Shown here: piece after piece, positions 21,097 to 22,131 of the stretch | Layout: every line of letters starts with the position of its first letter | How positions within the stretch are numbered: position 1 is the first letter of the stretch | Translations under genes and position numbers: made by a program | Assembly: GCA_041661405.1 (NCBI GenBank) | Contig: JBAZUL010000001.1 | Location: 92,403-156,402 of the forward strand | Reading direction: 5' to 3' | DNA: 64,000 nucleotides | Source: Patescibacteria group bacterium | Lineage (GTDB): Bacteria; Patescibacteriota; Patescibacteriia; Patescibacteriales; JBAZCA01 | Notes under the pieces: generated by a model | The model's input: the letters and a program-made list of their open reading frames with translations, nothing else | Told to the model about the DNA's origin: nothing | The model's database searches: none

Positions 21097-21127
21097 AATG
21101 TATTCAAGCACCAATCAGAATATCGCG

Positions 21128-21151
21128 TTATGTCCAGAGAACTGTGGACAT
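21128..21151. repeat. Palindrome family copy 1 (TTATGTCCAGAG-AA-CTGTGGACAT)
   Basis: Read directly. It is part of a 27-nt exact direct repeat, 21125-21151 = 21181-21207. Confidence 0.9.
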
Positions 21152-21183
21152 TGCGCTTGTGGATAACTTTTTGTAAAAATGCG

Positions 21184-21209
21184 TTATGTCCAGAGAACTG
21201 TGGACATAA
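21184..21209. repeat. Palindrome family copy 2 (TTATGTCCAGAG-AA-CTGTGGACATAA)
   Basis: Read directly. It is centred in a larger inverted repeat, 21158-21180 / 21217-21239, whose tips are DnaA boxes. Confidence 0.9.
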
Positions 21210-21317
21210 CTCCGATAAAAATTTACAAAGTTATCCACAGCAATTATTGTCCATATTGCCATATAATCGCCATTATAATGCTAAAATTAGCTACCATATA
21301 TTATAACATAAAAAGAG

Positions 21318-21343
21318 CTATGTCCACAAAACTCTAGACATAA
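21318..21343. repeat. Palindrome family copy 3, degenerate (CTATGTCCACAA-AA-CTCTAGACATAA)
   Basis: Read directly. Confidence 0.75.
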
Positions 21344-21549
21344 CTCCCTTATTGAACATCTCAATTTTTCCTCTGTGGATAACCTGTGAATCAAAATTTA
21401 TTCACAGTCGTTTATGAAAAAACGACTGCCCATAAACCTGTATCGGGTGCTTACTTGTAAGAGCGTATCCTTGACTAGATATGAGTAAAATAAATAACTC
21501 AAAATTGTGTTCACATCACCTAGCTCCTGGTAATACGAGGAGTGTACAG

Positions 21550-21567
21550 TGGGCTTAGTGGGACTCG
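21550..21567 (-). repeat. Duplicated 3'-end fragment of tRNA-Ala (att-like direct repeat)
   Basis: tgggcttagtgggactcg matches the tRNA-Ala 3' end tggacttagtgggactcg (21627-21644) at 17 of 18 positions. No complementary T-stem or 5' half accompanies it. Confidence 0.7.
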
Positions 21568-21626
21568 GCCGGCAAACGCCGGGCGGGAAGCGGATGCTCA
21601 CCGAATCTGATTAAGCAAATTATGTG

Positions 21627-21700
21627 TGGACTTAGTGGGACTCGAACCCACGACCTCTTGCATGCCATGCAAGCGCTCTAGCCAACTGAGCTATAAGCCC
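21627..21700 (-). tRNA. tRNA-Ala (anticodon GGC)
   Basis: Reverse complement GGGCTTATAGCTCAGTTGGCTAGAGCGCTTGCATGGCATGCAAGAGGTCGTGGGTTCGAGTCCCACTAAGTCCA. It carries the G3:U70 identity pair and the anticodon loop ATGGCAT. Confidence 0.9.
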
Positions 21701-21732
21701 GTGTATAGTCTTTCAATCTATTTCCAATTTTA

Positions 21733-21881
21733 ATAAAGGGAAATCTGTTTCGTTTTTGAAGCGAGGACATGTATCTCGCTGAGGATACATAATTAGTTTA
21801 CTCAGACTAACCGTACAGATGCCTAAATTAATGGCAGGTGTAGATTTCCGGAGCAAAAAAACGAAACAAATTTCCCTTTAT
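21733..21881 (-). other. About 150-nt element closed by a 25-bp inverted repeat (candidate structured ncRNA or MITE-like element)
   Basis: Arms at 21733-21757 and 21857-21881. The single non-Watson-Crick position is C-A on the plus strand but G-U on the minus strand. Internal hairpins are gcgag/ctcgc and tgcc/ggca. Confidence 0.4.
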
Positions 21882-22047
21882 CTTAACACCTTATCCACAG
21901 CTTAATCAAAACTTAATTAATATTGAATAATTCGCTAATATTAGCAAATATTACTGGGTGATGTTTTATCTTTATCCTTGACTTTCTCTACTTATCTCCA
22001 GTTTATCCACAACTTAATCAGACTTTACTTTTTTCTTGATTTTGGAC

Positions 22048-22073
22048 TTATGTCCAGAGAACTCTGGACATAA
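22048..22073. repeat. Palindrome family copy 4, perfect (TTATGTCCAGAG-AA-CTCTGGACATAA)
   Basis: Read directly; 12-bp arms with a 2-nt centre. Confidence 0.9.
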
Positions 22074-22131
22074 AAACCCGACTTTTCCACAGCTCAGCCT
22101 TCCGTCAAGGAGAAATATTATCATCCGTATG

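Follow-up and report, generated by a model that had tools for sequence, protein, structure and literature searches.

DnaA boxes among tRNA genes near the origin of a Patescibacteria genome: a candidate accessory DnaA-binding locus

Does a dense cluster of DnaA boxes lying among tRNA genes, at some distance from dnaA, mark the place where replication starts, or does it hold DnaA for another end? The question is raised by a block at positions 21098-22092 of a 64-kb stretch of a Patescibacteria genome (the whole stretch that was analysed, hereafter the window). An earlier note on this DNA had proposed either that replication initiates in the block, rather than or as well as next to dnaA, or that the block is a datA-like DnaA sink. 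We know of no experimental studies on origins and initiation control in the Candidate Phyla Radiation (CPR), and a literature search on oriC and DnaA boxes in Patescibacteria found nothing. The block lies 4.7-3.7 kb from dnaA, and is separated by about 5.2 kb and six genes from the predicted unwinding module in the dnaA-dnaN spacer.

The box cluster and its surroundings

Five perfect TTATCCACA boxes occur in the block, at 21158(-), 21231(+), 21374(-), 21891(+) and 22003(+), and they fall within 854 bp (21158-22011), just as the earlier note had it; nine further sites have at most two mismatches. Seven perfect boxes were found in the whole 64-kb window against 0.25 expected, a number that none of 100 shuffles reached. 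The block has the highest count of perfect boxes in the window, and for these its description as the densest cluster stands; at two or fewer mismatches the dnaA-dnaN spacer is denser (30.7 sites per kb, compared with 13.5 in the block and 3.3 in the background). The extra box TTTTCCACA at 22083 was confirmed, as was the set of boxes around dnaA, a single perfect one (27093) and five with one mismatch (25583, 25592, 25603, 27133 and 27270). The extended form TTATCCACA(G/A)CTTA(A)TCA is also real, and represents successively weaker boxes in an 11-bp-phased run. Of the proposed 82-bp inverted repeat, what holds good is a pair of exact 13-nt arms (21158-21170 and 21227-21239) with the palindrome 21186-21207 between them; the remainder is only loosely symmetric.

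The boxes are listed below together with their state in L001, the closest relative (DnaA 95% identical), which was compared within 10 kb on either side of dnaA.

21158-21166, minus strand: perfect DnaA box; a perfect box stands at the equivalent place in L001 (5511, minus), shifted by about 3 nt
21231-21239, plus strand: perfect DnaA box of this genome only; L001 has TTTGTTACA, and the box is not conserved
21374-21406: perfect box (21374-21382, minus), TGATTCACA (21385-21393, minus) and TTATTCACA (21398-21406, plus); TGTGGATAACCTGTGA is identical in L001
21891-21929, plus strand: DnaA-box array that opens with a perfect box and continues, at 11-bp phasing, with degenerate ones (TTATCCACA gc TTAATCAAA ac TTAATTAAT); a 31-nt run is identical in L001
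21992-22030, plus strand: DnaA-box array of TTATCTCCA, perfect TTATCCACA (22003) and TTAATCAGA; kept in L001, where the central box is TTATCAACA
22050-22091, plus strand: module of hairpin P4 (22050-22071), 11 nt and box TTTTCCACA (22083-22091); the L001 box is a perfect TTATCCACA

This last module recurs near-identically at 51997-52038. Other elements of the block and its upstream side are as follows.

21435-21567: tRNA-Arg-like fragment (21435-21453) and tRNA-Ala 3'-end-like fragment (21549-21567); no tRNA called, absent from L001
21626-21700, minus strand: tRNA-Ala(GGC)
21733-21881: 149-nt insertion flanked by 25-nt terminal inverted repeats, located between the tRNA-Ala and tRNA-Arg genes; single copy, absent from L001
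21934-21945: palindromic GCTAATATTAGC, the second motif shared throughout the clade; a -35 hexamer follows 24-25 nt downstream
22131-22203, minus strand: tRNA-Arg(CCT)
22357-22385, minus strand: strong sigma-70-type promoter, TTGACA-17-TATATT (11/12); kept in L001

The two tRNAs that had been noticed earlier are thus Ala-GGC and Arg-CCT. The absence of any ORF of 60 codons or more with credible signals was true in substance only: one mechanical ORF is present (21398-21601, minus strand, GTG start, 67 aa), nothing supports its coding, and it overlaps a stretch missing from L001. The promoter 22385->22357 points at tRNA-Arg and then onward into the box block, such that, at the sequence level, the promoter, tRNA-Arg, boxes, tRNA-Ala and further boxes follow one another in a single transcriptional direction. 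The 149-nt element folds with -56.6 kcal/mol (z = -7.7). The -35 hexamer downstream of GCTAATATTAGC is weak in the block, where it is a candidate read by eye; it is strong in the tRNA-Cys locus described below. Besides the tRNAs, no known RNA family matched in the block or at 51.5-51.9 kb.

The earlier note had suggested a comparison of box clusters in relatives, and in L001 both boxes and hairpins are kept against a diverged background. Identity to L001 is 95.5% for the hairpins, 92.6% for the array extensions plus GCTAATATTAGC, and 80% for the boxes, compared with 57% for the rest of the block, and five of six box positions are retained. The conservation pattern indicates that the block boxes are under selection. 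In addition, the DnaA of this genome keeps the box-reading residues of domain IV (PRQ, GGRDHTTaMHA), and for this reason TTATCCACA is the expected cognate site. We infer on these grounds that DnaA binds the block boxes, and consider the block quite probably a selected DnaA-binding cluster.

A cluster of this kind might instead consist of passengers, if a local duplication of tRNA and trailer had copied a hairpin-and-box unit and the extra copies had no selected function. The fragments at 21435-21567, best read as the relic of a local duplication, agree with this, as do the near-identical hairpin-N11-box modules at 22050 and 51997 and the lineage-specific insertions in the block. The fragments are not conserved in L001, however, whereas the boxes are, and boxes, arrays and hairpins are 80-96% identical to L001 where the rest of the block reaches 57%. 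Such an origin of the cluster appears very improbable.

The place of the origin

The most direct explanation of the cluster would be a displaced or second oriC, with replication starting in the block and the AT-rich stretch at 21241-21318 acting as the duplex unwinding element (DUE). It can draw on the block having the most perfect boxes in the window, on the AT-rich stretch lying directly after box 21231, and on a cumulative skew at 22.5 kb (-450) close to the minimum (-463, at 27417). The features concerned, in the block and around dnaA, are these.

21241-21318: AT-rich stretch (73% A+T), proposed earlier as a DUE; without an adjacent DnaA-trio array, partly conserved in L001
25583-25611, plus strand: triple DnaA-box array in the rpmH-dnaA spacer, TTATCCACT CTATCCACA gc TTATCAACA
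27093-27342, plus strand: origin unwinding region with nine box-like sites
27270-27342: basal unwinding system, comprising TTGTCCACA (27270-27278), GCCC, DnaA-trios TTATTATTATTACTA (27283-27297) and an AT-rich DUE (27283-27342)

The window was scanned on both strands by regular expression for a DnaA box no more than 16 bp from at least three DnaA-trios (NAN repeats, 3'-GAT-5' type). A single match was obtained in 64 kb, at 27270 in the dnaA-dnaN spacer, and none in 21098-22092. The same module was present in the dnaA-dnaN spacer of 45 of 75 loci from related Patescibacteria (Falkowbacteria-like), compared with 15 matches elsewhere in 1.25 Mb. In terms of duplex stability, 27283-27342 (about 85% A+T) ranks as the second least stable 60-bp window, whereas 21241-21318, which had been called strongly AT-rich as a DUE would be, is not among the 15 least stable. 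Moreover, box 21231 and much of this AT-rich stretch are not conserved in L001.

Strand bias points the same way. The cumulative G-C skew of the window has its minimum in the dnaA-dnaN spacer, but the raw curve is flat between 17 and 30 kb (-442, -450, -456), and for that reason cannot separate two sites 5 kb apart or decide the matter alone. Four-fold-site skew was therefore averaged over plus- and minus-strand genes of 30 syntenic loci; it is -0.111 left of the block, -0.121 from the block to dnaA (bootstrap 95% interval -0.153 to -0.087) and +0.109 right of dnaA. The dnaA gene itself (-0.284) resembles the plus-strand genes of the left side, and the window alone gave the same pattern (left -0.144 and -0.224, right +0.082). 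The replichore switch is thus at dnaA-dnaN, and the genes from the tRNA block up to dnaA show left-replichore behaviour. The box and trio module, the outstanding low-stability element and the strand-bias switch are all missing from the block and all found at dnaA-dnaN, both in the window and in relatives. We are highly confident that the block is not the unwinding origin, and initiation of replication within it, whether as a displaced or a second oriC, is largely refuted and extremely improbable.

As judged from its layout, the origin belongs to the Firmicute type and lies on both sides of dnaA, with a predicted unwinding module at 27270-27342. It matches the bipartite oriC with a basal unwinding system (B. 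subtilis incC and C. difficile oriC2; PMC8287927, PMC7561715), in that a box, a GC cluster, CTA/TTA trios and an AT-rich element lie just upstream of dnaN, and a box array lies upstream of dnaA. The block is outside this structure and has no trios. The array at 25583-25611 may be the upstream half of the origin region or, alternatively, a dnaA operator; on the opposite strand its 11+9 phasing is that of the tRNA-Cys cassette of relatives. These results assign the dnaA-dnaN spacer as origin to the entire Falkowbacteria-like clade, and a Firmicute-type unwinding module with it. They also imply that counting perfect boxes mislocates oriC in these genomes, and that the box and trio module is a better marker.

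Replicons or insertion sites of foreign origin were considered as well. An iteron-type plasmid or phage origin, or a prophage att site, was rejected: the locus is syntenic across the clade, the repeats are palindromes and not direct iterons, and the adjacent 172-aa ORF belongs to no family and is missing from L001, though L001 keeps the boxes.

Conserved hairpins and a sister locus at tRNA-Cys

The boxes of the block are interleaved with hairpins that share a clade-wide conserved stem, GTCCACA-N4-TGTGGAC. The 22-bp palindrome gives 10 matches (both strands) at six sites in the window, where none was expected; four sites are in the block, and two (51997-52083) stand beside boxes and tRNA-Cys. 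All four palindromes of the block are conserved in L001 while the surrounding DNA has diverged. In addition to P4, these and the sister locus are as follows.

21130-21151: hairpin palindrome P1, ATGTCCAGAGAACTGTGGACAT; RNA hairpin of -13.2 kcal/mol on the minus strand, kept in L001
21186-21207: hairpin palindrome P2, terminator-like on the minus strand (21210->21183, tail GCATTTTTAC); identical in L001
21311-21350, minus strand: hairpin palindrome P3, core 21320-21341, extended 16-pair stem with a U-rich tail, -19.8 kcal/mol; kept in L001
51997-52243, minus strand: sister locus of the same design as the block, representing the clade-wide cassette
52170-52243, minus strand: tRNA-Cys(GCA)
52128 and 52030: boxes of the sister locus, TTATCCGCA and a perfect box, respectively
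52062-52083 and 51997-52018: hairpins of the sister locus

By their sequence the hairpins look like terminators, and P3 in particular would be terminator-like for transcripts from tRNA-Ala. Stem energies in the window range from -8.4 to -19.8 kcal/mol. U-rich tails accompany two of the six hairpins, both among the four of the block and on the tRNA strand; the other four lack a U-tract and hence would be weak terminators at best. The stems reach a mean of 4.5 Watson-Crick pairs past the conserved core, the extensions being variable in sequence, and many relatives have A-run and T-run flanks around the hairpins. Among 290 instances 198 lie within 300 nt 3' of a gene and seven inside ORFs. The stem sequence is conserved across genera; in ordinary terminators it is not.

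Several candidate readers of the palindrome were tried and set aside. DnaA is unlikely to read the hairpin arms, as these show compensatory changes (GTCTACA/TGTAGAC, CCAGAG/CTCTGG) while the adjoining boxes are invariant, and as hairpins were never found in the dnaA-flanking origin spacers. Canonical parS/ParB was rejected because parS did not occur above chance (the 16-bp palindrome TGTTNCACGTGAAACA has one 3-mismatch match in the window, at 31941) and no ParB is among the annotated genes, nor among the 30 ORFs scanned against Pfam. Of the neighbouring genes, the 172-aa ORF and a TrpR-like gene are not syntenic in relatives. A 193-aa protein is encoded upstream of tRNA-Cys; its N-terminal part includes a hydrophobic stretch, it matches nothing in Pfam, and from its sequence it may be read as a secreted, cell-wall-type protein.

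The cassette of relatives is stereotyped, and consists of tRNA-Cys, a hairpin, two perfect boxes and a second hairpin (29 of 35 instances). A perfect TGTGGATAA lies no more than 250 nt downstream of 29 of 35 distinct tRNA-Cys genes from related contigs, always in the same orientation, and the proportion is 11 of 14 in loci chosen by dnaA only; the corresponding figure for other tRNAs is 7 of 174. The distance of the cassette from dnaA ranges between 0.3 kb and over 10 kb, and both sides of the gene are used. In contrast, most relatives have hairpins in their tRNA-Ala/Arg block, where canonical boxes are scarce (0.76 per kb at one mismatch or fewer, against 0.49 per kb outside), from which it follows that the dense cluster of the present block is lineage-specific and dispensable to the clade. 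Extra TTATCCACA-type boxes, of predicted high affinity, are thus systematically sited in tRNA trailers.

An accessory DnaA-binding locus

Of the two proposals of the earlier note, the datA-like sink is the best-supported reading, in that the boxes appear selected, lie outside oriC and downstream of tRNA genes, and recur in the same design at 52 kb. Taken as a whole, the best explanation is an accessory, origin-proximal DnaA-box cluster, resembling datA or the DnaA-box clusters (DBCs) of B. subtilis and coupled to tRNA transcription, to which we would give about an even chance. That its role is negative and coupled to tRNA read-through is, on our analysis, slightly less probable than that. Under such a mechanism DnaA would fill the perfect boxes and then spread to neighbouring, 11-bp-phased weaker boxes, and the locus would keep a DnaA pool about 5 kb away from oriC, whereby initiation would be damped or timed. 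The hairpins would govern, by attenuation, the share of tRNA read-through that arrives at the boxes downstream of the strong promoter 22385->22357, and DnaA occupancy would thereby be tied to tRNA transcription, i.e. to growth rate. We infer that the effect is negative, through titration or inactivation of DnaA, and that the hairpins serve in attenuation.

The E. coli locus datA inactivates DnaA: it promotes the hydrolysis of ATP held by DnaA, and initiation becomes untimely when it is deleted. It lies downstream of the glyV-X-Y tRNA operon, and tRNA read-through, a terminator/attenuator and the binding of DnaA all regulate it (PMC10950094). Like the block, it is an intergenic DnaA-box cluster outside oriC and directly downstream of tRNA genes (PMC10950094), with a terminator or attenuator hairpin between tRNA and boxes and transcription from the tRNA promoter able to enter the locus, features that in the block are read from sequence only. 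Unlike datA, which requires an IHF site, the block has no match to the IHF consensus WATCAANNNNTTR (six in the whole window, 5.2 expected), and it carries multiple hairpins built on a single conserved stem sequence, along with box arrays phased at 11 bp. Its distance of about 5 kb from oriC also differs, as about 470 kb separate datA from oriC in E. coli. The two loci, from unrelated phyla, are similar in arrangement and not homologous.

In B. subtilis six clusters of DnaA boxes close to oriC keep initiation in check (PMC3245932), and are proposed to do so by holding DnaA (PMC3245932). Like the block, these DBCs (Okumura et al. 2012) are extra box clusters near, and outside, a Firmicute-type origin (rnpA-rpmH-dnaA-dnaN), with more than one such locus per origin region, the second one here being that at 52 kb. 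They show no link with tRNA trailers or with any conserved hairpin, and are known from in vivo DnaA binding and an early-initiation phenotype, the block from sequence. If the boxes of the block buffer DnaA, a tie between tRNA transcription and initiator control, as in E. coli datA, would be a recurrent solution and not an enterobacterial peculiarity.

Alternatively, DnaA may act here as a transcription factor, and the boxes may be operators that tune tRNA-Ala, along with the 149-nt element, from a weak promoter overlapping box 21891, and at the sister locus the promoter 51891->51863, with any effect on replication being secondary. Box 21891 indeed falls between weak TTGATT (-35-like) and TAAGAT (-10-like) hexamers on the minus strand, as read by eye, and GCTAATATTAGC is 24 nt upstream of this TTGATT, which is its spacing in the tRNA-Cys cassette before a strong TTGACT-17-TATAAT promoter. 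The tRNA-Cys boxes are upstream of that strong promoter, which would permit transcriptional control by DnaA, and some B. subtilis DnaA-box clusters regulate adjacent genes (PMC3245932). Nonetheless, the candidate tRNA-Ala promoter fails to reach the threshold of the promoter scan, and L001 does not keep its -10; boxes 21158, 21231, 21374, 22003 and 22083 are at no promoter; and in the tRNA-Cys cassette over 100 nt separate the boxes from the -35 downstream of them. The neighbour of the block's left half is a convergent gene, turned towards it by its 3' end, so that nothing is there to regulate. We consider the operator explanation unlikely, though not negligible.

The block could also contribute positively, as the distal part of a multipartite origin from which DnaA loops to the dnaA-dnaN spacer and raises the local level of DnaA, in the manner of oriC1/incAB or the distal incC boxes of B. 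subtilis. Looping lets the latter act at variable positions and in either orientation (PMC6669920); where the gene order is rnpA-rpmH-dnaA-dnaN, origins are as a rule bipartite (PMC7561715, PMC3479198); and the rpmH-dnaA spacer here holds only three boxes. Yet looping would have to span about 5.2 kb across six genes, compared with 1.3-1.5 kb in known bipartite origins, and most relatives lack a dense cluster here while keeping the same unwinding module. The variable position of the tRNA-Cys cassette (0.3 to more than 10 kb from dnaA, either side) argues for a position-independent locus. A looping role is therefore rather improbable.

In Falkowbacteria-like Patescibacteria the cassette might, finally, be a CPR counterpart of datA and DARS with an independent origin. 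The hairpins would then be a second class of DnaA site, head-to-head as in DARS, or the site of an unknown partner, and the boxes in tRNA trailers would hard-wire tRNA transcription to initiator control. In the DARS core, boxes I and II stand opposed across 5 bp (PMC6868365), and the hairpin arms of relatives (AAGTCCACA-N4-TGTGGACTT, often abutting a TTATCC(A/C)C box) bear a likeness to the DnaA-reactivating sequences DARS1/DARS2 of E. coli. The arms, opposed across a 4-bp gap, differ from DARS in having 2-3 mismatches to the box, and seven of 12 arms in this genome have G at the critical C8; the arm changes are compensatory, as in a hairpin, and the hairpins are absent from oriC proper. A core of DARS type (I and II opposed about 5 bp apart, III in the direction of II, II of full consensus) was not found in the block, where canonical boxes that oppose each other are at the closest 64 bp apart (21158 and 21231). 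We hold this proposal to be rather improbable. Within it, the conserved stem GTCCACA-N4-TGTGGAC would be a pair of opposed DnaA-box-like halves, and the box-bearing trailers would be those of tRNA-Cys (29/35 in relatives) and, in this lineage, also of tRNA-Arg and tRNA-Ala.

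Gene order and the replication origin

The window belongs to a Falkowbacteria-type genome within the Patescibacteria (CPR). The DnaA protein encoded in it is 95% identical to that of L001, the closest relative's dnaA locus (from a MAG titled "Patescibacteria group bacterium"), and 55-68% identical to the DnaA proteins of numerous MAGs whose titles read Candidatus Falkowbacteria or the like. Many public MAG records in the clade (L002, L004-L006, L009 and others) bear the title "uncultured Gammaproteobacteria bacterium", which is contradicted by both their gene order and the similarity of their DnaA.

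Gene order around dnaA in the window
19382-20512, +, radical-SAM gene
20578-21096, +, 172-aa ORF of no family
21097-22514, protein-free block, both tRNAs on -
21626-21700, -, tRNA-Ala(GGC)
22131-22203, -, tRNA-Arg(CCT)
22515-22919, +, bactofilin
22972-23721, +, DAGK-like gene
23776-24525, -, yidC
24631-24885, -, small conserved ORF
24903-25256, -, rnpA
about 25.3-25.4 kb, -, rpmH
25758-27101, +, dnaA
27378-28520, +, dnaN

Farther left (17535-18787) lies a toxin-antitoxin-like pair in which a HEPN gene, with no counterpart in L001, accompanies a nucleotidyltransferase that has a winged-helix domain.

A search of both strands followed the definition of the basal unwinding system given by Pelliciari et al. 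(PMC8287927), i.e., a DnaA box with at most two mismatches, a spacer of at most 16 bp, and then at least three trios. The only match in the window was TTGTCCACA-GCCC-TTATTATTATTACTA at 27270, with an AT-rich run and then dnaN on its far side. This module mirrors the layout of B. subtilis incC. It likewise mirrors the trio of C. difficile oriC2, 5'-CACCTACTACTATTACTACTATGA-3', which also lies in the dnaA-dnaN spacer (PMC7561715). The same module was found in the dnaA-dnaN spacer (~260 bp) of 45 of the 75 related loci, compared with 15 matches in their remaining 1.25 Mb (both strands); three loci that all but lack this spacer have the module immediately 5' of dnaA. Among 60-bp stretches of the window, 27283-27342 has the second lowest duplex stability. 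The stretch 21241-21318, previously suggested as a DUE, is 73% A+T and falls outside the fifteen least stable 60-bp stretches.

The cumulative G-C curve has its global minimum at 27417, but from 17 to 30 kb it changes too little to decide the matter. Because resolution beyond that of the raw curve was needed, 30 loci with the tRNA-Ala/tRNA-Arg...dnaA synteny were pooled, and G-C skew was computed at four-fold degenerate third positions on the + strand; taking the mean of + and - genes cancels the coding-strand effect. Pooled skew was -0.111 left of the tRNA block (bootstrap 95%, -0.166 to -0.069), -0.121 between the block and dnaA (-0.153 to -0.087), and +0.109 right of dnaA (0.081 to 0.149). 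The skew of dnaA, -0.284, resembles that of left-side + genes (-0.22), unlike right-side + genes (-0.014). In the window alone, the values were -0.144 for the middle zone, -0.224 for dnaA, and +0.082 for the zone to its right. The replichores therefore diverge at dnaA-dnaN rather than at the block. Four independent lines (the module, its conservation, duplex stability together with raw skew, and pooled strand bias) firmly place the predicted origin in the dnaA-dnaN spacer, a useful by-product for a CPR clade. The block lacks origin signatures, and the proposal that it is a displaced oriC is refuted computationally, as the module, the stability and the strand-bias switch all point to the spacer.

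DnaA boxes in the block

The box cluster described in the earlier note was confirmed overall. Its five perfect TTATCCACA boxes lie exactly where reported, and the counts flanking dnaA (one perfect, five one-mismatch) were correct; the whole window holds seven perfect boxes against 0.25 expected from shuffling. That the block is the densest cluster needs qualification, since the dnaA-dnaN spacer is denser once boxes with up to two mismatches are counted (30.7 vs 13.5 per kb; background, 3.3). Domain IV of the window's DnaA retains the residues for recognizing the consensus box.

When the block was aligned with L001, identity was 57% in the non-coding background (over alignable columns), 95.5% in the palindromes, and 92.6% in the box-array extensions and the GCTAATATTAGC motif, and five of six box positions were retained as perfect or one-mismatch boxes. 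The boxes and palindromes thus conserved appear to be under selection. Neither box 21231 nor the "82-bp inverted repeat" of the first description is kept in L001.

Across most relatives, hairpins are present in the tRNA-Ala/Arg block but canonical boxes are few, and the dense cluster is an expansion restricted to the lineage of the window and L001. It probably arose by local duplication, as suggested by tRNA fragments and by hairpin-N11-box modules that are nearly identical. The fragments are short partial copies of tRNA-Arg (21435-21453) and of the 3' end of tRNA-Ala (21549-21567), at neither of which ARAGORN calls a tRNA; they are a relic of local duplication, because the enclosing stretch, 21430-21620, is missing from L001. 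Also not present in L001 is a 149-nt element between tRNA-Arg and tRNA-Ala (21733-21881; single copy in the window) with 25-nt terminal inverted repeats and a fold of -56.6 kcal/mol (z = -7.7), which is either a MITE-like insertion or a spacer RNA.

The hairpins and a possible role of the block

The 22-bp palindrome ATGTCCAGAGAACTCTGGACAT and its variants occur four times in the block and twice at 51997-52083, adjoining perfect box 52030, one-mismatch box 52128 and tRNA-Cys. Relatives carry it as TTAAGTCCACA-N4-TGTGGACTTAA, in which the 18-bp core geometry is strict; it is usually paired ~48 bp apart downstream of tRNA-Ala/tRNA-Arg, and its right arm frequently borders TTATCC(C/A)C. The clade consensus matched 120 metagenome contigs; most matches fall into two contexts, immediately 3' of tRNA-Cys(GCA) or beside tRNA-Arg/tRNA-Ala-bactofilin-DAGK-yidC...dnaA. 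The 290 instances include 110 at no more than 60 nt 3' of a gene (37 following tRNAs), 88 at 61-300 nt, and 7 within ORFs. On average, the arms continue for 4.5 Watson-Crick pairs past the conserved 7-bp core; these extensions vary in sequence and often show an A-run to one side and a T-run to the other, and so resemble bidirectional intrinsic terminators. Hairpins of the window fold at -8.4 to -19.8 kcal/mol, and two (21210->21183, 21350->21311) have U-rich tails on the tRNA-sense strand.

Every hairpin arm resembles a DnaA box with 2-3 mismatches. Nonetheless, DnaA is probably not the reader of the arms, because compensatory substitutions predominate in them (GTCTACA/TGTAGAC; CCAGAG/CTCTGG in the window's lineage) while true boxes beside them are invariant, and no hairpins were found in the origin spacers flanking dnaA across the clade loci examined. 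A sequence-specific partner protein could possibly account for a stem conserved across genera. In metagenome contigs, hairpins also occur within about 25 nt after tRNA-Asp (L138, L182, L184, L194), tRNA-Lys (L121) and tRNA-Ser (L189). As no DnaA boxes accompany them there, the conserved hairpin is primarily a tRNA-trailer element. Seven tandem GTCCACA-N4-TGTGGAC hairpins, four at a 134-bp period, lie downstream of tRNA-Ala in one metagenome contig, L161 (13934-14357), and a similar run stands at the start of a second contig, L202 (94-513), with no neighbouring tRNA in view.

A strong promoter that drives tRNA-Arg, TTGACA-17-TATATT (22385->22357), is aimed into the block and kept in L001. The layout thus comprises a tRNA promoter, a tRNA, candidate attenuator hairpins, and predicted high-affinity DnaA boxes beside weaker, phased ones. 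Recent work dissected this arrangement in E. coli datA, which lies downstream of glyV-X-Y and is under the control of DnaA binding, tRNA read-through and the operon's terminator/attenuator (PMC10950094). Initiation in B. subtilis is restrained by six DnaA-box clusters near oriC (PMC3245932). Given the shared layout and this restraint, the block and its sister locus at ~52 kb would be accessory loci for DnaA binding; close to the origin, they would hold or modulate DnaA in a way coupled to tRNA transcription. We infer DnaA occupancy, the sign of the effect on initiation, and attenuation by the hairpins. The datA-like DnaA sink of the earlier note is, by layout and conserved boxes, the best supported reading of the block, though a putative one; datA is defined by an IHF site, and none was found in the block. 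DnaA may instead regulate transcription from weak promoters within the block, or the boxes may have a positive looping role, with a precedent in the distal boxes of B. subtilis incC (PMC6669920).

The tRNA-Cys cassette

A further by-product of use is a clade-wide cassette of stereotyped order: tRNA-Cys, hairpin, TGTGGATAA-11 nt-TGTGGATAA, hairpin, GGCTAAAATTAG and a strong promoter. A perfect box, constant in orientation, lies within 250 nt downstream of 29 of 35 distinct tRNA-Cys genes (11/14 in loci chosen by dnaA only), as against 7/174 for all other tRNAs together. The cassette lies 0.3 kb to >10 kb from dnaA in relatives, on either side, and 25 kb away in the window, which marks it as a self-contained locus and no fixed part of oriC.

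A GCTAA(T/A)ATTAGC palindrome is kept across the clade, at 21934-21945 in the window and downstream of the cassette in, for example, L018, L137 and L165. A -35 hexamer follows it after 24-25 nt, making the palindrome a candidate regulator site or upstream promoter element. Between the cassette and a dksA-like gene, the window also has a conserved non-coding stretch of ~350 nt (51504-51891, -) with its own strong promoter, TTGACT-17-TATAAT with TG (51891->51863), and a terminator (51519->51504). It matched no Rfam family and is alignable in relatives, where RNAalifold predicts 88 pairs, 27 with compensatory changes, making it a candidate new structured RNA.
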